Assembly: GCA_016869195.1 (NCBI GenBank)
Contig: VGET01000001.1
Coordinates: 2,800 to 66,799, forward strand
Source: Alphaproteobacteria bacterium
Lineage (GTDB): Bacteria > Pseudomonadota > Alphaproteobacteria > UBA828
Direction: 5' to 3'
Length of the DNA: 64,000 nucleotides
In this document: positions 16,458 through 55,440 of the stretch, piece after piece
How the letters are laid out: each line of letters starts with the position of its first letter
How positions within the stretch are numbered: the first letter of the stretch is position 1
Notes under the pieces: generated by a model
What the model saw: only the letters and a program-made list of their open reading frames with translations
Told to the model about the DNA's origin: nothing
The model's database searches: none
Translations under genes and position numbers: made by a program

Positions 16458-17158
16458 GCAGGCGGCAACCCACTAGGGGCCCTGCTGTCCATGAGGTGGA
16501 ATGGTCAGCACCACGTTTTTGATTGACACGTCTCGGCTTGGCCAAGCGCGACTGCTGGTGTTTCTCACTAGGTCCGCACAGACGATGAGGACGCATGGGA
16601 ATCGGTTGATCAATAGGAATCTCCCAATTCCGAGGATGTCGTAGTCACACATTGGACGGCCCGCTTCCTCCAAAGGGGCTCGGCACGTACTTGTTTCATC
16701 GAAAGAAGAGAGCCCGGGAAACCTGTCACGCGAGCAATTCATCCTGAAGTCGCTCGACCTGGATCTATTTTTCCAAGCGACTTGTTTTTTTCTCGGAGCT
16801 GACCGGGTGCTCTCGGTCGGCGTTGGCATGGTTCCGCCAGTCGGCAGGCGAGACGCGCCCCCTTGAGGTGCTCACGGAGGCCGCGCTCGGGTTTGTTGGC
16901 GGAGCGAATGCTGCGAGGGACGGCAGCCAATGTAGAGGCGGGGTTTGGCCGCCATCGAATATGTTCGATCTCTTGATCCCGGAACGTAACGAGCGATCGT
17001 CAAACTTGACGATCAATTCTTCCTGCCGACAGACACCTCGATCGGCGCGTTGTAGCCACTGGATGGTGCATGGCTGGGATGTATTCCTAATCTGCGCCTT
17101 TACGCAATGGCTGCGTATATCCGCATCACTTGCTAAATGACCTCCGGGGGGGTCCTGC

Positions 17159-17419
17159 ATGCCGATTCGCTCGTCCGATCTAATCGAGAGTGTCGCGAAG
17201 GGATGCGAACTCGATCCCGGGATTGTTCGCCGATATTGGCGCACGCTGCGGGAGGCCGAGCTTGTCCCCGCCGGTCGCAGCGGACGTTCCGGGAGCGAAG
17301 CGCCGGTGGAGCCGATCCATACCGCAACTTTGCTCGTAACTCTGCTCGGCAGTGAGACCGCAATTGGATGCGTTTCCGCAGTCGCAAAGATCCGAGCGCT
17401 CAAAGGACCCCGCGTGTAG
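17159..17419 (+). CDS. Hypothetical small protein within the islet.
   Basis: It is an ORF with protein-like composition and no recognisable family. Confidence 0.25.
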   Translation: MPIRSSDLIESVAKGCELDPGIVRRYWRTLREAELVPAGRSGRSGSEAPVEPIHTATLLVTLLGSETAIGCVSAVAKIRALKGPRV

Positions 17420-17633
17420 GTCGCGCCCGTTCGAGTCCGCAGTGGCTCGGATTTGATCGTTCATGAAGTGTCGATAGCTCCCCAAGGAGCTACGGTCGAG
17501 GATGCCCTGGAGGCGCTGATCAATCTCGAGCGGGGGGGATAACTCTTTTGCGAGCAACTTTGCCGCGATTTCGGTTTCGACCTGTCGAGCAAAGACGTGG
17601 GCCCGGATCGACATCAGCAGTCGGCGAAGCCAA

Positions 17634-18051: not shown

Positions 18052-18312
18052 ATGACGAAACCACGAAAACATCTGGTCGTTGAGCCAGCGACAATGACGT
18101 GGGCCGAGGTTTCGGAGTATGCGTTCCGCAAGGGCGAAAGCTGGCTCCGCGCGCATCTGACGGACTTCACCGACTTCCCGCGGCCCGACCCGTCGCTCGG
18201 CCTGTTTCGGAAGCTCGACGTCGATCGCTGGCTCGGTCGTCGTTTCGGTGAAGTGACATCGGACGTGGTACAGCTCGAGTCCGAGCTAATCCGGAGGGCG
18301 CGCCGTGGTTAG
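18052..18312 (+). CDS. AlpA/excisionase-like DNA-binding protein.
   Basis: It is 86 aa and overlaps the integrase start by 8 nt. It contains an HTH-like TMTWAEVSEYAF segment and a ..LDVDRWL motif. Confidence 0.4.
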   Translation: MTKPRKHLVVEPATMTWAEVSEYAFRKGESWLRAHLTDFTDFPRPDPSLGLFRKLDVDRWLGRRFGEVTSDVVQLESELIRRARRG

Positions 18313-19372
18313 GGTGAAGGTGCGCCATCTGGTCGACAAGCCGCGTAAGGACGGCCGCTCGCGCTACTACTGGCAACCGACCGCCAAGCTCCGCAGGGCG
18401 GGTTTCGTCCCCATTCGCCCCGAGGATGACCTCTCGGTCGCGGTGAAGCACGCGGAGGAGCTGAATGCGGAGGTTGATCGGTACTACCGGGGTGATCAGC
18501 CGGTCGCCGTGAAGCCCGACAGCGTCAAGGCGCTCCTGCTCACCTTCGAGCGCGACAACGCGTTTCAGAGGCTCGCCGCTCGCACCCAGCGAGACTATCA
18601 GCAGGCCTTCGTACACATCCTCGAGTGGGCAGGGGACATGCCGGTCCGGGCGCTGACGCGCAGGGCGATCAAGGAATATCAGCGGTCCATCGAAGCGAAG
18701 CGCGGCCGCCACGCGGCGCACCATATTCTGATGGCGCTCAGCGCTGCGCTCAGCCTGGCCGTCGACGAGGGCTGGATCGAGACGCATCCCGGCCGAAACC
18801 TGAAAATTAGCCTGGGTGATGGCCGGTCCGTAGTTTGGGCGCACGCTCAGGTGGAGAAGTTGATTCAGGCGGCCGAGTTAGAGGGGCGCCCCTCGGTCGC
18901 CTTGGCTGTGATGTTGGGCTGGTGCCTCGGTCAACGCCCGGCGGATCTTCTGGCGCTGACTTGGTCCGCCTACGACGGGGCAACGATCACGCTCCGCCAA
19001 AATAGGACCGGGGCCCGACTGCCGCCGATACCGGTGCTCCCAAGCCTCAAGGAGCTGCTCGACCGGAGGCCTCGGCGCGCGGTGCAGATGGTGATCTCCG
19101 AGGCGACCGGGCAGCCCTACAAGCTCGACCGATTCCAGCGTTTCTTTGGGCAGCTGCGGGCCAAAGCCGGTTTGCCGGCCAACCTCTACTTCGCGGACCT
19201 GCGGCGCACTGTCGCCACCCAGCTCGGCAAAGCGGGCTGCAGCGAGGACGTGATTCGCTCCATCACCGGGCATCGAAGCCGCGAGGTGCTGCGCCGATAT
19301 GTTCGGCCCGACGGGTCTTTTTCGGAGCGCGGGATCGGCGAGCTGAAACGGCTTCGCGAGAACAAAGAATGA
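18305..19372 (+). CDS. int: Tyrosine-type site-specific recombinase (phage integrase family).
   Basis: It has an N-terminal SAM-like/core-binding region and a C-terminal catalytic region containing ..ADLRRT.. and ..GHRS..Y. It has a GTG start. Confidence 0.7.
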   Translation: MVRVKVRHLVDKPRKDGRSRYYWQPTAKLRRAGFVPIRPEDDLSVAVKHAEELNAEVDRYYRGDQPVAVKPDSVKALLLTFERDNAFQRLAARTQRDYQQAFVHILEWAGDMPVRALTRRAIKEYQRSIEAKRGRHAAHHILMALSAALSLAVDEGWIETHPGRNLKISLGDGRSVVWAHAQVEKLIQAAELEGRPSVALAVMLGWCLGQRPADLLALTWSAYDGATITLRQNRTGARLPPIPVLPSLKELLDRRPRRAVQMVISEATGQPYKLDRFQRFFGQLRAKAGLPANLYFADLRRTVATQLGKAGCSEDVIRSITGHRSREVLRRYVRPDGSFSERGIGELKRLRENKE

Positions 19373-19428: not shown

Positions 19429-19515
19429 GCCCGGGTGGCGGAACCGGTAGACGCACCGGACTCAAAATCCGGCGGTGGCAACACCGTGCGAGTTCAAGTC
19501 TCGCCCCGGGCACCA
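19429..19515 (+). tRNA. tRNA-Leu (anticodon CAA), with a long variable arm and an encoded CCA end.
   Basis: The acceptor strand GCCCGGG pairs with CCCGGGC, followed by discriminator A and then CCA. The anticodon loop is CUCAAAA, and the D-arm GUGGCGGAAccGGUAGACGC is nearly identical to the E. coli tRNA-Leu D-arm. Confidence 0.8.
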
Positions 19516-48308: not shown

Positions 48309-50669
48309 ATGCCCTCGCGCCAGATGAACCCCGCCGCCATCGGACAGCCCCTCCGCCGGGTCGAGGACGAGCGCTTTGTGCGCGGCCTCGGCAGCTATGC
48401 CGAAGACATCGTGCTGGCGGGCGCGCTGCACGGCGTCGTGCTGCGCTCGCCCCATGCCCACGCTCGAATCGCGTCCCTAGACGCGTCGGCCGCCCGCGCG
48501 GCGCCCGGCGTCGTCGGGGTTCTCACGGCCGATGACCTGGACCGCGACCGGATCGGCCCCATGCCGTGCGCGAGCCTCGCGACCGGGCTCAAGGGCGTCG
48601 GCGGCAAGCCACCGATCATGCCGGCGCATTTTCCGCTGGCGCGCGGCACCGTGCGGCATGTGGGCGAGGCGGTCGCCTTCGTCGTCGCCGAATCGGAGGC
48701 GCAGGCGCGCGAGGCCGCCGAGCTGATCGCGGTCGAGTACGAGCCATTCGAGGCGGTCACAACTGCCACAGCGGCGGGAGACGACGGCGCGCCGCAGCTT
48801 TGGCCCGAGGCGACGCGCAATCTCGCGCTCGTCTGGGAGAACGGCGATGCTGTGGCGACCGAGGCTGCGTTCGCGCGTGCCGCGCACATCGCGCAGCTCG
48901 ATACGCTCAACAACCGGCTGATCCCGACGCCGATCGAGAACCGCTCGGCGCTCGGCGCCTTTGAGGCCGGCACCGGCCGCTACACGCTGTGGAGCCAGAC
49001 GCAAGGCGGCCACATGCTGCGGCGCCTTTTGGCCGAGAGCGTGCTCGGCGTGCCGGAGAACCGGGTGCGCGTGATCACGCCCGATGTCGGCGGCAGCTTC
49101 GGCATGAAGATGTACCTCTACCCCGAGCAGGCGCTGGTGCTCTGGGCGGCGCGGCGCTTCGGCCGGCCGGTGCGCTGGGTCGCCGAGCGCGGCGAGAGCT
49201 TCCTCGCCGACAGCCATGGGCGCGATCAACACATTACGGGCGAGCTCGCGCTCGATGAAGGTGGCCGAATCCTGGCCTTGCGCGTGCGCACCGAGGCGAA
49301 CATGGGCGCCTATTTCTCGACCCTCGCACCGATCATCCCGACCGCAGGCGGCACGCGCGGCCTGACCGGCGTCTACGACATCCCCACCGCGCACGTGCGC
49401 GTCAGACTGCGCTTCACCAACACCGCGCCGATCGATGCCTATCGCGGCGCGGGCAGGCCCGAGGCGGCCTTCCTGATCGAGCGATTGATCGAGATCGCCG
49501 CGCGCGACACGGGGCACGACCCGCTCGCGCTGCGCCGCCTGAACCTCGCGCGCATCGACAATACGCCGTACAAGACCGCGCTCGGGCTTAACATCGACAG
49601 TGGTGCGTTCGGGAAGAATCTCGACGACGCGCTCCACGCCGCCGATGCCACAGGGTTTCCAGCCCGCTGCGCCGCCGCGCGCGCACGTGGCCGGCTTGCC
49701 GGCCTCGGCGTCTCGCTCTATGTCGAACCCTGCGGCGGCGGGCGCGACCAATTGGCCGCGCTCCGCTTCGACCCGAGCGGCTCGGTGACCGTGCTGATCG
49801 GCTCGCAATCAAACGGCCAGGGCCACGAAACCGCGTACGCCCAGATCGTGGCCGATCGTCTGCAGCTCCCGATCGAATCGATCCGTGTGGTGCAGGGCGA
49901 CACCGACGCCGTGCCCTATGGTCGCGGCACCAGCGGCTCGCGCTCACTTCCGATTGGCGGCAATGCGCTGGCCGGTGCCGCCGAGCGTGCGCTCGCCAAG
50001 GCGAAGCTCATCGCCGCGCATCTGATCGAGGCGGCGGAAGCTGACCTTCGGTTCGAGGGCGGGCATTTCCGTGTCGCCGGCACCGACCGCGCGATCGCCA
50101 TGAAAGCCGTCATCGAGACCGCGTTCGAGCCAGCCCGCCTGCCGCCCGGCATGGCGCCGGGCCTCGACGAATCCCTGCATCACAACCAGGCGGCGCTGAC
50201 CTTTCCGAACGGCTGTCATGTCTGCGAGCTCGAGGTCGATGGCGAGACCGGCGTTGCCGAGATCACGCGCTACACCGTGGTCGACGATTTCGGCCGGCTG
50301 ATCAATCCGCTGCTGGTCGAGGGCCAGGTCCATGGCGGTGTGGCGCAGGGCATCGGCCAGGCGCTCTTCGAGCATGGCATCTATGACCCCGAGGGCGGGC
50401 AACTTTTGACCGGCTCGCTGATGGACTATGCTTTGCCCCGCGCCGATGCGTTGCCCGCGATCTCGCTCGGCTTCAACGAGGTGCCGTGCCGCACCAACGC
50501 TCTCGGCCTCAAAGGCTGCGGCGAGGCCGGCGCGATCGCGGCGCCCGCGGCCGTGATCAACGCGCTGGTCGATGCACTCAAGGAATTCGGCGTGCGCCAT
50601 ATCGAGATGCCGGCGACGCCTGAGCGACTCTGGCGCTTGATGCGGAACAGCAAACTCCAGGGCTCGTAG
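48309..50669 (+). CDS. Molybdopterin-binding large subunit of the xanthine dehydrogenase/aldehyde oxidase/CoxL family. It is an orphan, with no FeS or FAD subunit genes adjacent.
   Basis: It is 786 aa with an N-terminal Ald_Xan_dh_C-like region (PLRRVEDERFVRGLGSYAEDI) and MoCo-binding domains. Confidence 0.65.
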   Translation: MPSRQMNPAAIGQPLRRVEDERFVRGLGSYAEDIVLAGALHGVVLRSPHAHARIASLDASAARAAPGVVGVLTADDLDRDRIGPMPCASLATGLKGVGGKPPIMPAHFPLARGTVRHVGEAVAFVVAESEAQAREAAELIAVEYEPFEAVTTATAAGDDGAPQLWPEATRNLALVWENGDAVATEAAFARAAHIAQLDTLNNRLIPTPIENRSALGAFEAGTGRYTLWSQTQGGHMLRRLLAESVLGVPENRVRVITPDVGGSFGMKMYLYPEQALVLWAARRFGRPVRWVAERGESFLADSHGRDQHITGELALDEGGRILALRVRTEANMGAYFSTLAPIIPTAGGTRGLTGVYDIPTAHVRVRLRFTNTAPIDAYRGAGRPEAAFLIERLIEIAARDTGHDPLALRRLNLARIDNTPYKTALGLNIDSGAFGKNLDDALHAADATGFPARCAAARARGRLAGLGVSLYVEPCGGGRDQLAALRFDPSGSVTVLIGSQSNGQGHETAYAQIVADRLQLPIESIRVVQGDTDAVPYGRGTSGSRSLPIGGNALAGAAERALAKAKLIAAHLIEAAEADLRFEGGHFRVAGTDRAIAMKAVIETAFEPARLPPGMAPGLDESLHHNQAALTFPNGCHVCELEVDGETGVAEITRYTVVDDFGRLINPLLVEGQVHGGVAQGIGQALFEHGIYDPEGGQLLTGSLMDYALPRADALPAISLGFNEVPCRTNALGLKGCGEAGAIAAPAAVINALVDALKEFGVRHIEMPATPERLWRLMRNSKLQGS

Positions 50670-50792
50670 AGCCTTGGCCGGCGCGACTGCGTTGCGCGCT
50701 TTGGCGCGCGCACCAGCACGCGACGCCGCCTTTGCGGCGGAAGCCAAGCGAGCGGAGCGAGCGCCCGGCACGTCAGGGCGTCTCGATGATCA
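50670..50792 (+). repeat. Palindrome-rich intergenic repeat element, copy A (RIME-like).
   Basis: It shares GCCTTGGCCGGCGCGACTGCG ... GCCGCCTTTGCGGCGGAAGCCAAGCGAGCGGAGCGAGCGCCCGGC ... AGGGCGTCTCGATGAT with copy B, and has a 33-nt extra hairpin segment. Confidence 0.6.
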
Positions 50793-50814
50793 CTCTCGAT
50801 CAACGAGACTGACG

Positions 50815-51591
50815 TCAAGACGACCCGTCCTTCGACTCCGGCACAAGCTGCCCGCCGTCGACCACGATGGTCTGACCGGTGATGTAGGCGGCCTCCTTGG
50901 TGGCGAGGAAGAGCGCGGCATAACCGAGGTCCTCGACCGCACCAAGACGGCCGAGCGGGATCGCTGCCTTCGCCGCACGCCAATAGTCCTCGCCCATGGC
51001 GGCACCGCCCTCGGTCATGATGTTGCCCGGCAGCACCGCGTTCACCGTGATGCCGTATTTGGCGAACTCCAAGCAGGCCGCGCGCATGAAGCCGAGCTGG
51101 CCCGCCTTGCTCGCGCCGTAATGGCCGAAGCCGGGGGTCGAGGTAAATGGGCCGGTGATCGAGGAGGTCAACACGATGCGGGCCTGCTTGCTTTTCTTCA
51201 GGTGAGGCAGGCAGGCCTGCACCGACAGGAACGTGCCCTTCAGGTTGGTCGCCTGAACCTCGTCCCATTGCGCCGCCGTCATCTCCTCGATGCGCACCAT
51301 CGGGAACACGCCGGCATTGGCGCAAAGGATGTCAACGCCGCCATGGCGCTCGTCAGCGGTGCGGGCCATCGCCAATGTTGCCGCTTCATCCGAAACGTCC
51401 GCCGCAAAGGCCGAGGCGACATGGCCTGCCTTGACCAACTCGGCCGACGCCGCTTCGGCCGTCGCGCCGTCGCGCGCCACGATCAGCACCTTGGCGCCGT
51501 GCTCGGCGAACACGCGTGCGATGCCCTTGCCGATACCCTTGCTGCCGCCGGTCACGATGACGGATTTGCCCCTGATCGAATCAGCCAGCAT
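50815..51591 (-). CDS. SDR-family oxidoreductase.
   Basis: TGGSKGIGKG nucleotide-binding motif and the catalytic YGASK motif. Confidence 0.65.
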   Translation of the reverse strand: MLADSIRGKSVIVTGGSKGIGKGIARVFAEHGAKVLIVARDGATAEAASAELVKAGHVASAFAADVSDEAATLAMARTADERHGGVDILCANAGVFPMVRIEEMTAAQWDEVQATNLKGTFLSVQACLPHLKKSKQARIVLTSSITGPFTSTPGFGHYGASKAGQLGFMRAACLEFAKYGITVNAVLPGNIMTEGGAAMGEDYWRAAKAAIPLGRLGAVEDLGYAALFLATKEAAYITGQTIVVDGGQLVPESKDGSS

Positions 51592-51618
51592 CGCGGCCCT
51601 CCCGGTTCGTGCGCTCGT

Positions 51619-52947
51619 TTACGCGTCGAGCGATTGCTCCAGCGCCTCGATCAGCGTCGCGATATGCTCGCTTTTGAAGCAGAGCGGCGGGCGGATCTTG
51701 AGAATATTGCCGAAGCGCCCGGCCGCGCCGATCAGCACGCCGCGATCGCGCATGCCATTGATGACGCGCGTCGCCGTTTCCGCATCGGGGCGCGCGAGGT
51801 CACCGTCATGGCTGAATTCGACGCCGATGAAGAGGCCGGCACCGCGCACCTCGCTGATGCCCGGACAGCGTTGCCTCAGGGCCGCGATGCGCTCACGCAA
51901 TTCGGCACCGATGACGCGCGCATTCTCCTGCAGGCCCTCGTCGCGCAGCACGTCGAGCACGGCGAGGCCGGCCGCCGCCGCCACCGGATTGCCACCGAAG
52001 GTGTTGAAATAGCCGACCTCCGTGCAATAGGCCGCGAGCCGCTTGGGCGTTGTCGCGAGCCCGGCGATTGGAAAGCCATTGCCCATCGGCTTGCCCATGG
52101 TGACGATATCGGGCGTCAGACCATGGCGGCCGAAGCCCCACATGTGATCGCCCGTGCGGCCAAAGCCGGGCTGCACCTCATCGGCGATGAACAGCCCACC
52201 GGCCGCGCGCATGGCCTTCACCGCCGGCGCCATGAAGCCCTTGGGGTCGGCGAACACGCCGTCGCTCGAAAAGATCGAATCGCAGATCAGCGCCGCCGGC
52301 TTCAGCCCATCGCGCGCCAACGCCGCGATCGCCTGCTCGACCGCCTTGCCGAAACCACCCGCGATGTCATCGCCGTAGGCCGCGCGGCCGGGTGCCGGCA
52401 CAAGCCTTACATGGCGCCTGAGCCGGCCGGGCTTCAACGCCGAGGGCGAAATCTCGGTCACCGCGGTCGTGTTGCCGTGATAAGCGGTCTCGGTGACGAT
52501 GAAGCCCTCGGCGCCCGAGGCCGCGCTCGCGATGCGCATGGCGAGGTCATTGGCCTCGCTCCCCGAGCAGGTGAGCGCGACGTTCGACAGGCTCTTCGGC
52601 AAGGTCGCCTTGAGCCGCTCTGCATAGGTCTCGATGATCTCGTTCAGATAGCGCGTGCTGGTGTTGACGGTGGCGGATTGCTTCGCGATGGCCTCGGCGA
52701 CGCGCCTGTGGCTGTGCCCGATCGAGGGCACGTTGTTATAGGCATCGAGATAGCGCCGGCCATCGGCCGCGACCATCCACGCGCCCTCCGCCGCCACGAT
52801 GTTGAGCGGCGCGCGATAGAACAGCACGGAGGCCGCGCCGAAATTGCGCTCGCGTCGTTCCAGGAGCGCCTTGGTCTCAGCGTCGAGCCCGGCCTTGGCC
52901 TCGCGCTCGAAGGCGTTCAGCGACAACGCGTGTCGGACCTCGGCCAT
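51619..52947 (-). CDS. Class-III (AGXT2-like) PLP-dependent aminotransferase-fold enzyme, possibly an aminoalcohol-phosphate phospho-lyase.
   Basis: It has a PLP fold-type I class III layout (..LTCSGSEANDLA.. and ..DEVQPGFGRTG..). The start is at MAEVRHA, internal to the 488-aa ORF. Confidence 0.55.
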   Translation of the reverse strand: MAEVRHALSLNAFEREAKAGLDAETKALLERRERNFGAASVLFYRAPLNIVAAEGAWMVAADGRRYLDAYNNVPSIGHSHRRVAEAIAKQSATVNTSTRYLNEIIETYAERLKATLPKSLSNVALTCSGSEANDLAMRIASAASGAEGFIVTETAYHGNTTAVTEISPSALKPGRLRRHVRLVPAPGRAAYGDDIAGGFGKAVEQAIAALARDGLKPAALICDSIFSSDGVFADPKGFMAPAVKAMRAAGGLFIADEVQPGFGRTGDHMWGFGRHGLTPDIVTMGKPMGNGFPIAGLATTPKRLAAYCTEVGYFNTFGGNPVAAAAGLAVLDVLRDEGLQENARVIGAELRERIAALRQRCPGISEVRGAGLFIGVEFSHDGDLARPDAETATRVINGMRDRGVLIGAAGRFGNILKIRPPLCFKSEHIATLIEALEQSLDA

Positions 52948-52975
52948 GCCCTGCCTCCCAAGCTGATGCGCCGCC

Positions 52976-53977
52976 TCAGCCGAAGCGCGCGAGATAGCGC
53001 TCGGCGAGCTCGCAGCTGAACGAGCAATAGCCCGGGCCCGCGGTCTGCGCCAGCACCGTATCGGCGTGCGAGCCGAACCAAGCAAACACGGTCAGGCGGC
53101 GCAGCATGATGAAGGTCCAGATCTCGGCCTCATCCGCCGCGGAGAGCGGCCGCACCCGCCGATAGCCCTCGAGCCAGGCGGCCAACAGCGCGTCGAGGTT
53201 CGGGTCGTTCTCGATCAGCGAGACCGCGGTGGCGATGTCGTAGAGAAACCAGCCGAGGCCGCAATCATCGAAGTCGATGACGCGAACGTCGCCCTGGTGG
53301 ATCAGCAGATTGCCAAGGCGAAAATCAGCATGGATCAGGCCGAAGCGATCGGGCGCCGTGCCGTAGGCCCGCAGGCGCTTCCCGATCGTCGCGACCGCGC
53401 GCTCAAAGATCGGCCGCTGCTGGTGGGTGAGCTCCGGCCCGTCTTGCCACGGGCCCCAGTTTGGCGTGGCACCCAGGCAGTGCTCGAAATCCCAAGACAG
53501 GCGCTCGAAAAAGGGCGGCCGGCGCCAGCCCACACTGTGAACGTGGGTGCGCGCGGCCATCTCGCCGAGCTGGCGAAAGGCCGGCACGAGGTCGTGCTCG
53601 GGCGAAGGCTCGCGGCCGTCGATGAACTCGAAGAGCACGCAACGGCGCGGCGTCGGTACGCTTGGATGCGAAACGACCTGAATGTCCTCGCCATTGCGCG
53701 CCGGAATCGCCTGCGGCGTCTTGATCCCGGCCTCGGCCTGGAGCGCACGCATCCAGGCGAGCTCGGTGCGGATGCCATTGGTCGTGTTGTAGCCCTCGCG
53801 ATGCACGCGAAGGATGACGGGGCGACCACCACCGCGCGGCTCGACGCGATAGATAGAGTTTTCGGTGCGGTTGATCGGGCGCAGCGTGGCGCCCTCGAGC
53901 CCCCAATGGCCGAGCGCCGTCGCCGCCAGCGCATCGACATTGACGACGATCGGGGTGGGCGAGAGGACGTTGGTCAT
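52976..53977 (-). CDS. Aminoglycoside-phosphotransferase-fold small-molecule kinase (APH/choline kinase/homoserine kinase II family).
   Basis: It has the Brenner motif region HADFRLGNLLI and DFDDCG. Confidence 0.55.
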   Translation of the reverse strand: MTNVLSPTPIVVNVDALAATALGHWGLEGATLRPINRTENSIYRVEPRGGGRPVILRVHREGYNTTNGIRTELAWMRALQAEAGIKTPQAIPARNGEDIQVVSHPSVPTPRRCVLFEFIDGREPSPEHDLVPAFRQLGEMAARTHVHSVGWRRPPFFERLSWDFEHCLGATPNWGPWQDGPELTHQQRPIFERAVATIGKRLRAYGTAPDRFGLIHADFRLGNLLIHQGDVRVIDFDDCGLGWFLYDIATAVSLIENDPNLDALLAAWLEGYRRVRPLSAADEAEIWTFIMLRRLTVFAWFGSHADTVLAQTAGPGYCSFSCELAERYLARFG

Positions 53978-54349
53978 CAGATCAGGTCTGCCGGACGGAT
54001 TCTGGGCGCCCAGTCTTGCCGATCCCGGGCGCCCGAGCCAAGGGCACAGGCGTCACCCGTTGCGATCCATGGGGACACTTCTTTGCCATTGCCTTCAAAG
54101 GCTAAAGGTGTCTCGCCAATACGTACATTCCTACACGCTCGGACGAGCGGAAAGGGCACGCGACCAAGCCGCACGGAAAACGCTGAAGAACTTGGTTCTC
54201 CCGGTACGGTTGCCAGCGGCCGAGTGTAGATAGCGCGAAGTGCACTGCAGAACGCCCTCCGAAGGCGTGAGCCCTTCCGCGGCATAGCGACCCCGTTATT
54301 CGTCAGAAAATCGAGCTTATACCAAGGCGCGATGAGCTTGACTCATCGG

Positions 54350-54440
54350 GCCTTGGCCGGCGCGACTGCGCCGCGCCGCCTTGCGGCGGGAGCCAAGCGA
54401 GCGGAGCGAGCGCCCGGCGTTTGAGGGCGCCTCGATGTTC
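54350..54440 (+). repeat. Palindrome-rich intergenic repeat element, copy B (RIME-like).
   Basis: It is a direct repeat of copy A. The 21-nt left arm and the 28-nt core AGCCAAGCGAGCGGAGCGAGCGCCCGGC are identical. Confidence 0.6.
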
Positions 54441-54639
54441 GGTCACGATCATCGAGGTTTGGTATTACAAGGTGGATCCGTTCGAACCGGGGCGGATCAC
54501 GGTCAGCCAGGGCTGTCCAGCCCCTGGCAAGCACCCTTGTCCCCATCTAACATCCCGCACCGGCTCGGCGTGGAGAGCGGCCCGAACACGACATTCCTGA
54601 GCCTGGCCGGAGTCCGACGGGCCACGATCAGGTGGATCC

Positions 54640-55440
54640 ATGTCTTCGATCAATCTTCGCCAGCACGAGATTCTCGCCATCGCCCGCCAGTCGGGCAAGG
54701 TCACCGTTGAAGGCTTGGCGTTGCATTTCGATGTCACGCCGCAAACCATTCGCAAGGACCTGAACGAGCTCTGCGAGCAGCGGATGCTGACCCGCACCCA
54801 TGGCGGGGCGCTGCTCTCCTCGGGCGTCGAGAACGTGGCCTACGAGGCGCGGCGCCAGCTCGCCGCGGGAGAGAAACACCGCATCGGCCGGCGTGCCGCT
54901 GAGCTCATTCCCGACAACTGCTCGCTCTTCGTCAATATCGGCACCACTACCGAGGAGGTCGCCCGGGCGCTCGTGCAGCACGAAGGCCTGCTGGTGATCA
55001 CCAACGACCTGCACGTGGCCACCCTGCTTACCCCCTGCCCTGGCATCGAAGTGATCGTGGTCGGCGGCGTGGTGCGGCGCGCCGACGGTGGCATCGTCGG
55101 CGAGGCCGCGGTCGACTTCATCCGGCAGTTCAAGGTCGACTATGCGGTAATCGGCGTCTCCGCGATCGACGACGACGGAGCGCTTCTCGACTTCGATTAT
55201 CGCGAGGTCCGCGCGGCGCAGGCGATCATCGCCAACGCCCGCCACGTCATCCTGGTGTCGGATGCGATGAAGTTCACGCGCTCAGCGCCCGTACGGATCG
55301 GCCACATGAGCCAGGTCAGCACCTTCGTCACGGACCAGAAGCCGCCGGACGCCATTCTCGAGGTCTGCCGTGGCCATGATGTCAGCGTCGAGGTCGCCTC
55401 AAGCCCAGAAGAGGATGGCCAGGATCGCCCTGCGGCCTGA
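54640..55440 (+). CDS. glpR: DeoR-family transcriptional regulator (GlpR-like).
   Basis: It has an N-terminal HTH (RQHEILAIARQSGKVTVEGLA) and a C-terminal sugar-phosphate-binding domain. Confidence 0.7.
   Translation: MSSINLRQHEILAIARQSGKVTVEGLALHFDVTPQTIRKDLNELCEQRMLTRTHGGALLSSGVENVAYEARRQLAAGEKHRIGRRAAELIPDNCSLFVNIGTTTEEVARALVQHEGLLVITNDLHVATLLTPCPGIEVIVVGGVVRRADGGIVGEAAVDFIRQFKVDYAVIGVSAIDDDGALLDFDYREVRAAQAIIANARHVILVSDAMKFTRSAPVRIGHMSQVSTFVTDQKPPDAILEVCRGHDVSVEVASSPEEDGQDRPAA

Follow-up and report, generated by a model that had tools for sequence, protein, structure and literature searches.

Several kinds of short palindromic repeats are known from bacterial genomes. The Rhizobium-specific intergenic mosaic elements (RIME; Osteras, Stanley and Finan, 1995, cited in PMC2573895) are intergenic, palindrome-built elements of about 100-110 bp, which are confined to Rhizobium and closely related bacteria. 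The REP sequences and BIMEs of the Enterobacteriaceae and the REPINs of Pseudomonas with their RAYT transposases (PMC5581495) consist of short imperfect palindromes that are over-represented outside genes. MITEs such as Correia and NEMIS are non-autonomous elements moved by a DDE transposase; they are non-coding, about 150 nt long, highly folded as transcript or DNA and bounded by terminal inverted repeats. Here we compare these systems with two GC-rich repeat copies, A and B, that lie 3.65 kb apart and in the same orientation on the plus strand of the window, i.e. the whole 64-kb stretch of DNA that was analyzed. Both are most probably independent copies of a dispersed, non-coding mosaic palindromic repeat of the REP/BIME/MITE kind.

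A 21-nt arm (GCCTTGGCCGGCGCGACTGCG) is exactly shared by A (50671-50691) and B (54350-54370), and so is a 28-nt core (AGCCAAGCGAGCGGAGCGAGCGCCCGGC; 50742-50769 and 54391-54418). Even if up to three mismatches are allowed, arm and core give two matches each in the 64 kb, while 0.01 and 0.00 matches, respectively, are expected in shuffled sequences. No third copy was found in the window by profile searches with family and lineage HMMs, and A and B are its sole substantial repeat. Thus, two statements of the preliminary description, that a pair of palindromic repeats in the same orientation is present and that the window holds no other copy, are confirmed: the exact blocks are not expected by chance, and mismatch-tolerant and HMM searches return A and B only. 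Likewise correct were its coordinates and Pfam assignments for the three minus-strand genes between them: an APH-family kinase (52976-53977; Pfam APH), an enzyme with a class-III aminotransferase fold (51619-52947; Pfam Aminotran_3) and, as last gene of the unit, an SDR oxidoreductase (50815-51591; Pfam adh_short and adh_short_C2, NCBIfam SDR/FabG-like). On the other side of copy A lies the gene for the large subunit of a Mo hydroxylase (48309-50669, plus strand; Pfam). Beyond copy B, a DeoR/GlpR-type repressor gene (54640-55440, plus strand; Pfam, NCBIfam) opens a glycerol-3-phosphate dehydrogenase and ABC-transporter cluster, which is outside the three-gene module.

The repeat extends well beyond this window. 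The imperfectly palindromic core of the family (GCCAAGCGAGCGGAGCGAGCGCCCGG) recurs as an exact 26-mer in at least 117 8-kb blocks and, among the matches listed, in 27 alphaproteobacterial assemblies, with at least 22 core-bearing blocks in a single 4-Mb MAG; the blocks listed comprise 136 exact core copies and 178 profile matches. As in REPs and REPINs, the palindrome is over-represented outside genes: 103 of the 118 classifiable core copies among the matches listed are intergenic, lying between 35 convergent, 51 co-directional and 17 divergent gene pairs, and so are all copies of the window's own lineage. The preliminary description, which considered the repeats as possible boundaries of a mobile cassette, had named genome-wide dispersal as evidence to the contrary, and such dispersal was largely found, across assemblies and in all gene contexts. 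The host MsbA shares 67-70% identity with its counterparts in the MAGs that carry the repeat family. Its nearest relatives come from MAGs of uncultured Alphaproteobacteria, a few of them labelled Rhodospirillales, and the best named homologues of the kinase are from Dongia. Rather than a Rhizobium, the host is an uncultured bacterium of Rhodospirillales-like affinity, and the repeat family is a clade feature of uncultured Rhodospirillales-like Alphaproteobacteria, among which it is common; it seems to be uncurated. The subfamily of the window's lineage looks rare; four further sites of it were detected in metagenomes of the same lake, a collection that missed a contig known to carry both A and B.

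The preliminary description had likened the architecture to that of RIME. Since the repeat is intergenic and mosaic in build, the analogy to RIME and BIME fits as far as architecture is concerned. The points of likeness to RIME are intergenic position, a length of about 100-150 nt, large palindromes in mosaic combinations and tens of copies, and copy B with its 147 nt, four hairpins and palindromic core agrees with this build. Membership, however, does not follow: the host is outside Rhizobium, and no Rhizobium or Sinorhizobium plasmid in PLSDB matched the element.

In each repeat unit, several short GC hairpins are stacked ahead of an imperfectly palindromic core (26-28 nt), and a short tail comes last. 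In the lineage of the window, two longer hairpin arms with inverted termini (ATACCAAGG...TTTGGTAT) enclose this unit. Copy B (54319-54465, plus strand) represents this full-length form and is situated in the 662 nt that separate the divergent kinase and DeoR/GlpR genes. It had been located correctly before, but its extent is longer than described. Its ends, 54319 (ATACCAAGGCGCGATGAG...) and 54465 (...CATCGAGGTTTGGTAT), were set by terminus searches and by alignment with five copies of the same lineage (L132, L133, L135, L137 and L008). They constitute imperfect terminal inverted repeats, a MITE trait that is present in copy B and the lineage copies and lost in A. From left to right, copy B comprises a left terminal hairpin (CCAAGGC-g-CGATGAG / CTCATCG-g-GCCTTGG; 54322-54356), two short GC hairpins (CGGCGC-GACT-GCGCCG and CGCCGC-CTT-GCGGCG; 54358-54388), the core identical to that of A, and a right hairpin (CCTCGATG...CATCGAGG; 54430-54458), which was recovered by fold, terminus search and lineage alignment alike. 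The right terminus TTTGGTAT comes 3' of the latter and ends at 54465. What was previously called an arm turned out to be the 3' half of the long terminal hairpin, and L008 retains this hairpin with GCGACA/TGTCGC as its stem instead. The same type of arm, without the core, is found in a repeat present in 17 copies on a Pannonibacter plasmid. The fold of copy B reaches z = -6.6 as DNA and -5.9 as RNA. Its closest relative, L137, is 99.1% identical, yet has a different flank and thus occupies another locus, which we assume to be part of the same genome as the window. Judged from these features, copy B is a recent, intact insertion between two divergent genes.

Copy A (50670-50812, plus strand; delimited by alignment with copy B and the five lineage copies) differs from this picture. 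It separates the convergent Mo-hydroxylase and SDR genes, whose stop codons are at 50669 and 50815, and as described before it starts directly 3' of the former. With 83-88% identity to every other copy, B included, it is the most diverged one, and its RNA fold is z = -3.9. Both termini are missing, while the left edge merges with the final codons and the stop codon of the Mo-hydroxylase gene. The 21-nt block shared with B covers the 3' half of the stem of the terminal hairpin and the first part of the GGCGC-GACT-GCGCC hairpin. It is followed by a GC-rich hairpin module (GCGCGC-TTTG-GCGCGC and linker; 50692-50723) that aligns with a gap in copy B and all other lineage copies; the previously reported insert is therefore present, although its size is about 30 nt instead of 33. 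Extra or duplicated hairpin modules were also seen in other family members. The core itself has the form GCC-aa-GCG-ag-CG-gag-CG-ag-CGC-cc-GGC. By its sequence, copy A is an old, terminally truncated insertion. After landing at the junction of the convergent genes, it would have lost both termini and acquired the extra hairpin, and the new stop regions of the two genes would derive from it.

Of 135 family copies, 129 have a hairpin next to the core, with 29 different stems among them. Compensating variation is also seen in the hairpin one step further upstream, and the core pairs as an 8-bp interrupted hairpin (RNAalifold). If these compensating changes are considered together with the exact recurrence of the core in 27 assemblies among the matches listed, the repeats might be regarded as genes for structured small RNAs or as cis-acting regulatory RNA motifs, whose RNA-level function would preserve core and covarying hairpins. 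The tail (in most lineages CTGAGGGAAATGA) is RBS-like and sometimes stands directly 5' of a start codon, which would suit such a role. Nevertheless, we consider it very unlikely. Rfam gave no family match even at E <= 5, and no promoter match was found in the repeats. Orientation bias is weak, with 65 upstream genes pointing at the element and 38 pointing away. Since only exact matches were scanned for, the apparent invariance of the core is in part an artefact. Besides single copies, tandem arrays, head-to-head doublets (L006, L083) and stacked tail-only fragments occur, which is typical of repetitive DNA; an insertion sequence landed inside one head-to-head doublet.

The orthologous locus of a close relative, L126, with 88% nucleotide identity, carries the same kinase, phospho-lyase (i.e. 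the aminotransferase-fold enzyme), SDR and Mo-hydroxylase genes. Its convergent SDR and Mo-hydroxylase genes have 4 nt in common, so there is no repeat at the site of copy A. At this site, the window comprises about 164 nt more, and the C-termini of both gene products differ, that of the Mo hydroxylase being ...LWRLMRNSKLQGS in the window vs. ...LWRLIHKI in L126. The empty site is given by this one close relative; precise loss of the repeat in the lineage of L126 is less parsimonious than insertion in that of the window. The conserved gene order thus crosses the boundary at copy A that a cassette would require. Furthermore, all contigs from several lake samples that span either junction retain the module, the GC content of which equals that of its flanks. 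Considering the empty site, the retained module, the matching GC content and the closer similarity of B to a copy at another locus, A and B are likely independent insertions of different age.

This bears directly on the mobile cassette of the preliminary description, in which the direct repeats serve as recombination substrates or capture scars and the 3.65-kb three-gene segment is gained, lost or duplicated as a unit. Such a scenario draws on the direct orientation of A and B, on their exact 21-nt and 28-nt blocks and on the fact that just one operon-like unit lies between them. In addition, the gene order upstream of the kinase varies: L126 has another neighbor there, its similarity ending at window position 54040, and relatives of the DeoR/GlpR locus resemble the window exactly from the DeoR start codon onward and differ upstream. 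If the family were truly rare in this genome, the spacing of 3.6 kb would also be closer than random (P ~0.03-0.1 by rough estimate). However, the gene-order break at about 54040 is about 280 nt away from copy B rather than at it, A and B are not sister copies, and no deletion, duplication or junction variant was seen among the lake-sample contigs spanning the junctions. Elsewhere, kinase and phospho-lyase are paired in many contexts that lack the repeat. With 28 bp, the identity block is close to the shortest that RecA-dependent recombination can use; thus an exchange between A and B would be rare. Together with the gene order in L126 and the unremarkable composition of the module, these points make the cassette highly improbable. 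The location of A and B on both sides of the operon would rather be a by-product of the available intergenic DNA. An integron cassette was considered as well and rejected, as three genes lie between the repeats, instead of the one promoterless ORF of a cassette near intI, and the sequence read holds no attC core sites (RYYYAAC ... GTTRRRY). The sole integrase of the window (18305-19372) is of phage type and sits beside a tRNA gene, 31 kb away.

The repeat most likely spread as non-autonomous DNA that would be mobilized by an enzyme whose gene lies elsewhere in the genome and would land in intergenic DNA. Similarity to REPs and REPINs is found in the mosaics with other motifs, in the coexistence of single, tandem and head-to-head copies and in the preference for gene 3' ends. 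GTAG, which like CGTC is a conserved head next to REP palindromes, extends into the first core base in 53 of 140 copies; the window copies have GAAG or GGAG instead. In contrast to REPs, the version of this lineage bears terminal inverted repeats, and the inverted-doublet layout of REPINs does not apply to the direct pair of the window or to most copies, which are single or in tandem. Neither a transposase nor a RAYT, the Y1 transposase that REP/REPIN systems encode in a single-copy gene flanked by the repeats, was detected by Pfam among the scanned ORFs of the window, several of which have no Pfam match at all, and a crude motif search gave no RAYT in 0.94 Mb of repeat-bearing loci. No transposase-like protein family recurring near the copies stood out when the sequences were judged by eye. 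As in MITEs, intergenic insertions can abut or alter gene ends, and copies differ in age. Other aspects differ from MITEs: the five sites for which both flanks are available show no target-site duplication, and across lineages the center of the element is conserved rather than its termini, whereas the reverse holds for a typical transposase-defined MITE. In the 64-kb window, the termini occur only at copy B, and no parent insertion sequence sharing them was found. The IS5-like gene in L083 is bounded by different ends of its own.

Once inserted, the copies might have been co-opted for regulation, A as a two-way transcript-end hairpin for the Mo-hydroxylase and SDR genes, B as a protein-binding or attenuating element in the control region shared by the kinase operon and the DeoR gene. 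This would be compatible with independent insertion. The exact position of copy A between the two stop codons and its strong fold, as well as the fold of copy B (z = -6), speak for such roles. So does the family as a whole, in which convergent sites are over-represented (35 of 103) and divergent ones under-represented (17 of 103), the same pattern as in REP elements. REPs of E. coli stabilize upstream mRNA and can end transcription, and the hairpins of copy A might protect or end both convergent transcripts in the same way. On the other hand, neither A nor B contains a match to a T-run terminator or a sigma-70 promoter, which does not support the terminator or operator function considered in the preliminary description. 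L126 does without the element at the same junction, and locus-specific regulation is unlikely, as over 100 unrelated loci share an identical core, in either orientation. We therefore regard co-option as possible, yet doubtful.

The genes between the repeats deserve a comparison of their own, which concerns the cargo and not the repeat. What had been described as aminotransferase-like does have the class-III fold, but belongs to the phospho-lyase subfamily: its best PDB matches are the Arthrobacter phospho-lyase 5G4I ('phospholyase', E = 5e-100) and the human ethanolamine-phosphate phospho-lyase ETNPPL (6TOR, E = 9e-93), while GABA transaminases score far weaker (E ~1e-47), and a transaminase identity was thus rejected. 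The best solved-structure match of the kinase is 6EF6 (E = 1e-84), which we take to be the (S)-1-amino-2-propanol kinase of Mycobacterium smegmatis. Its substrate is probably an amino alcohol, either 1-amino-2-propanol or ethanolamine. The enzymes of the module match these amino-alcohol proteins far better than transaminases or aminoglycoside kinases. Given the phospho-lyase, the kinase/phospho-lyase/SDR module is predicted to be probably involved in amino-alcohol catabolism; no microcompartment genes were found near it. Among known amino-alcohol systems, fusion proteins of kinase and phospho-lyase exist, and the product of 51619-52947 also matches the C-terminal part of NCBIfam kinase-aminotransferase fusion models.

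Two GC-rich palindromic repeats in the same orientation, copy A at 50670-50812 and copy B at 54319-54465, were confirmed where the preliminary description had placed them. They share an exact 21-nt arm (50671-50691 and 54350-54370, + strand) and an exact 28-nt core (50742-50769 and 54391-54418, + strand). With up to 3 mismatches allowed, core and arm each matched twice in the 64-kb window, while dinucleotide-preserving shuffles gave expected values of 0.00 and 0.01 for the two patterns. The claim that the window holds no other copy withstood all searches as well: a repeat search of the whole window delivered no further substantial repeat, and profile HMMs of the family and of the lineage revealed no additional copy, diverged ones included. 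Between the copies lie three minus-strand genes whose coordinates had been given correctly, encoding an APH-family kinase (52976-53977), an Aminotran_3 protein (51619-52947) and a short-chain dehydrogenase (SDR; 50815-51591). They are flanked by a Mo-hydroxylase gene (48309-50669, +) on the side of copy A and a DeoR/GlpR gene (54640-55440, +) on the side of copy B.

The size first attributed to the element, about 100-120 bp, did not hold. To define the full unit, copies A and B were aligned with the Lake Tanganyika metagenome copies and one MAG copy (L008). Copy B is longer and more modular than described, with 147 nt from 54319 (ATACCAAGGCGCGATGAG...) to 54465 (...CATCGAGGTTTGGTAT) and imperfect inverted termini. 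The lineage-specific tail was found in at least six metagenome loci representing at least four further sites, all from Lake Tanganyika samples; this site count is a lower bound, since the same scan overlooked a contig known to carry both window copies. On the + strand, copy B folds into a long left hairpin (54322-54356), two short GC hairpins (54358-54388), the core (54391-54418) and a right hairpin (54430-54458), with a fold z of -6.6 for DNA and -5.9 for RNA parameters. The 21-nt arm corresponds to the 3' half of the left hairpin and the beginning of the next one. Both termini are missing from copy A. Its left edge merges with the final codons and the stop of the Mo-hydroxylase gene, and the copy does contain the additional hairpin module noticed before, with approximately 30 nt instead of 33 nt.

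The direct repeats had been proposed to bracket a mobile or captured cassette, and several lines of evidence leave this idea unsupported. All four genes recur in a related locus, L126: kinase, phospho-lyase, SDR and, convergent to them, Mo-hydroxylase. The kinases of L126 and the window share 91% identity, and DNA identity over the three module genes is 88%. There, the SDR and Mo-hydroxylase genes overlap by 4 nt and the repeat is absent. Thus a conserved gene order runs across the supposed cassette boundary. At this junction the window is approximately 164 nt longer than L126 and the C-terminal residues of both proteins differ. The simplest reading is that copy A was inserted into a pre-existing gene junction, and this insertion seems to have provided or displaced the stop regions of both convergent genes. 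The Mo-hydroxylase terminates with ...LIHKI in L126 and with ...LMRNSKLQGS in the window (50641-50669), the SDR with ...PESKEATP and ...PESKDGSS (50815-50828), respectively. The ages of the two copies differ as well: copy B is 99.1% identical to L137, a copy with another flank, and 93-94% identical to two further sites, while identities between copy A and all other copies, B included, amount to 83-88%. Judged by these identities, the two arose separately and form no sister pair. Furthermore, the GC content is even over module and flanks (0.66-0.69).

When the exact kinase, SDR, DeoR and Mo-hydroxylase proteins were looked up, contigs from several samples were returned, and wherever these span a junction they all retain the module; none among them joins DeoR to Mo-hydroxylase. 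Short-read contigs break at or near the repeats, and L139, L141 and L142 begin 130-205 nt upstream of DeoR. One contig (L120, Logan SRR7052762_10123) matches window 50700-54348, from within copy A to just before the shared arm of copy B, and its 3,649 nt equal the repeat spacing. Since short-read assemblies stop at such elements, a 3.65-kb contig or graph bubble is an assembly effect and no sign of a circle, yet at this locus it could be mistaken for an excised unit. Identity blocks of 21 and 28 bp are about the minimum usable by RecA-dependent exchange, which would make deletions by this mechanism rare. If the lineage subfamily is really as scarce as the few metagenome matches imply, a spacing of 3.6 kb between two of its copies is somewhat tighter than expected at random (P approximately 0.03-0.1, own estimate). 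A reading as integron attC sites was rejected on sequence and context.

On the side of copy B, similarity to L126 stops at approximately 54040, roughly 280 nt from the repeat. Two relatives of the DeoR gene become similar at the start codon (54640), while their upstream DNA is unrelated and free of the repeat, and consequently they yielded no empty site for copy B. The breaks at approximately 54040 and 54640 mark the gap between kinase and DeoR as a lineage-specific breakpoint region, with copy B as no more than a possible cause. The DNA preceding the closest DeoR orthologue (91% amino acid identity; L157 1-430) contains a putative fragment of an integrase-core (rve-type) transposase, judged by eye, which indicates that the region upstream of the DeoR operon varies between lineages. 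At a distance of 31 kb from the repeats, a phage-type tyrosine integrase gene (18305-19372, +) adjoins a tRNA gene (19429-19512, +); ORFs at 16473-17614 are without Pfam match, and the integrase/tRNA region may mark the boundary of an integrated island. By the tests of the cassette idea, the repeats do not render the operon mobile; they are properly annotated as dispersed repeats and have little consequence for the locus.

Beyond the window, exact matches to the 26-nt core GCCAAGCGAGCGGAGCGAGCGCCCGG were present in at least 117 8-kb blocks, which belong to at least 27 assemblies among species-representative genomes. Within the matches listed, the hosts are nearly all uncultured Alphaproteobacteria, labelled Rhodospirillales, Magnetospirillaceae, Niveispirillum or Roseococcus, and one 4-Mb MAG alone comprises at least 22 core blocks. 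Complete MAGs with many copies of the element include OY763937, OZ243972, OZ253557 and CBDCKM. The usual layout is, in order, CCGGGCC-loop-GGCCCGG, CGGCGC-GACY-GCGCCG, a variable GC hairpin, the core and a CTGAGGGAAATGA tail. A hairpin next to the core was present in 129 of 135 copies from the matches listed, built from 29 different stems, and the hairpins are thus kept by compensating changes. RNAalifold identified the core as an interrupted palindrome and recovered, from a 140-copy alignment, the core hairpin alone; the variable hairpins are missing from this result because they are misaligned by length, and the direct count was used instead. The invariance of the core in the alignment is partly forced, as the scan demanded an exact match; in the core-bearing blocks listed, a profile search obtained 178 copies compared to 136 exact ones.

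Copies are arranged singly, in tandem or as head-to-head doublets, with tandem units of 62 nt in Magnetospirillaceae and 90-100 nt elsewhere. In the Magnetospirillaceae MAG JAWLGJ01, the core forms tandem arrays of 60-63-nt units that consist of hairpin CCGCCGTTGAGGCGGCG, core and AGGGCACAA...; tandem arrays are found at L017 7706-7791, L033 6098-6185, L047 5435-5560, L063 3141-3229 and in L107. A CRISPR reading of the 62-nt arrays was rejected, because the "spacers" are constant. Partial copies comprising the 3' end only (GCGCCCGGCGNCTGAGGGAAA...) often follow a full copy in stacks of one to three, and such 5'-truncated units lie downstream of the core in L003, L006, L009, L030, L035, L040, L043, L044, L048 and L051. 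According to a crude gene finder that relies on GC3, 103 of the 118 copies that could be classified among the matches listed are intergenic (35 between convergent, 51 between co-directional and 17 between divergent genes), while most of the inspected cases among the 15 "inside gene" copies sit at ORF edges.

Rfam gave no relevant match, either at gathering thresholds over the whole window or at E <=5 over 50600-54700, and no paper on the core sequence was found by full-text literature search. BLAST of the family consensus against PLSDB plasmids was without match, for which low-complexity masking is possibly responsible; copy B as query gave two weak matches, one of them an arm repeat of Pannonibacter. 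The family is apparently new, of the REP/BIME/MITE kind, and seems uncurated. It is abundant in poorly studied freshwater and soil Alphaproteobacteria and missing from Rfam; a family model would help annotation and repeat masking, and the family could act as a lineage marker.

The match to Pannonibacter concerns the left arm of copy B, which is 87.5% identical over 40 nt to a repeat located between genes of a Pannonibacter phragmitetus plasmid. This repeat of approximately 105 nt (L152 1498-1612, corresponding to NZ_CP013069.1 292062-292176) has the termini ATACCAA...TTGGTAT as in copy B and two large hairpins, without any core, and is found at 17 places on the NZ_CP013069.1 plasmid and at 13 on a second Pannonibacter plasmid. 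An arm shared without the core means that, in the window lineage, the clade-wide core unit is nested in the arms of another repeat type, making the repeat, by sequence comparison, a mosaic.

Dispersed, intergenic and palindromic, with copies of differing age, an empty site and near-identical copies elsewhere, the repeat behaves like REP, BIME or MITE elements and would represent non-autonomous repetitive DNA of this kind. The preliminary description had likened it to Rhizobium-specific RIMEs. While the RIME/BIME-like architecture stands, membership is unsupported, as the host is not a Rhizobium: its MsbA shares 67-70% identity with the MsbA of repeat-bearing MAGs, some labelled Rhodospirillales, and among named organisms Dongia provides the best kinase homologues. 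The window lies within a 71,467-nt MAG contig, and 99.9% identical sequence was found in several Lake Tanganyika metagenomes and one ENA assembly.

Among the scanned window ORFs, no transposase or RAYT was detected, and a regular expression for RAYT motifs, a crude test, gave 0 matches over all loci (0.94 Mb) and the window. When 743 predicted proteins of repeat-bearing loci were clustered, no transposase-like recurring neighbour became visible by eye; the recurring clusters comprised a small protein of phage-like appearance and abundant paralogues of metabolic enzymes (hydantoinase B-like, SDR). Named by eye, 19 hydantoinase/oxoprolinase B-like genes in 14 loci and 15 SDR paralogues in 14 loci were counted among the core-bearing loci L001-L117, a frequency probably caused by large paralogue families in these genomes. 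A gene between inverted copies in L029 was dismissed as candidate, since it belongs to a large-ORF cluster judged phage-like by eye. In L083 (600-2300), an IS5-like DDE transposase gene (789-1922, by eye) lies between head-to-head copies, has its own inverted ends and is accompanied by three stacked tail-only fragments on its left; it represents an insertion into the repeat doublet, of the sort known from REPs. No target duplication is visible at the lineage copies, though inverted termini are present. Across lineages the centre of the element is conserved and the termini are not, and thus REP-like recognition of the core hairpin region would fit better than MITE-like recognition of the termini.

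It is conceivable, though we consider it rather unlikely, that the repeat belongs to an undescribed REP-like system of the whole clade with a partner protein outside recognisable RAYT or DDE types. In such a system, the interrupted palindrome of 26-28 nt would be accompanied by stacked GC hairpins that vary in a compensating manner. The system may have been retained across Rhodospirillales-like Alphaproteobacteria, in at least 27 genomes at the species level, and may undergo recombination with hairpin arms unrelated to it, for instance the Pannonibacter-type termini of the window lineage. If true, a novel DNA- or RNA-binding enzyme would recognize the core, and the window pair would be one ordinary instance of the system. 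A terminator or operator role, as suggested previously, gained no support: the repeats contain neither a T-run terminator nor a promoter match, and L126 does without the element at the SDR/Mo-hydroxylase junction. By analogy, protection of mRNA ends at copy A or another secondary role is plausible.

The genes between the repeats deserve better names. The class-III aminotransferase-like gene indeed encodes the Aminotran_3 fold, while the transaminase name fails: among solved structures it best matches two phospho-lyases, 5G4I (E = 5e-100) and 6TOR, the human ethanolamine-phosphate enzyme (E = 9e-93), whereas true transaminases match far more weakly (approximately 1e-47). The kinase, publicly annotated as 'RdoA/aminoglycoside phosphotransferase', has its best PDB match in 6EF6 (E = 1e-84), which we take to be a mycobacterial (S)-1-amino-2-propanol kinase, deposited under the name aminoglycoside phosphotransferase; literature searches on 6EF6 or aminopropanol kinase gave nothing useful. 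NCBIfam models of fused kinase-aminotransferases match both the kinase and the lyase gene, and the pair is conserved in relatives in varied contexts without the repeat. Kinase, phospho-lyase and SDR (50815-53977, minus strand) therefore look like a putative amino-alcohol catabolic unit, most likely predicted to convert an amino ketone or amino alcohol to its O-phosphate and further to aldehyde, ammonia and phosphate. Consequently, "amino-alcohol kinase" and "phospho-lyase" are preferable to the misleading "Aminoglycoside phosphotransferase" and "aminotransferase". In L128, hydantoinase A/B genes adjoin the kinase and lyase pair. In one lake sample (L138 4337-5338 / L145 3615-4616; JGI 3300020200, Ga0194121_10001831), the kinase gene is called as two ORFs of 284 and 43 aa in an otherwise identical sequence, which could reflect a frameshift or nonsense variant or an assembly error.
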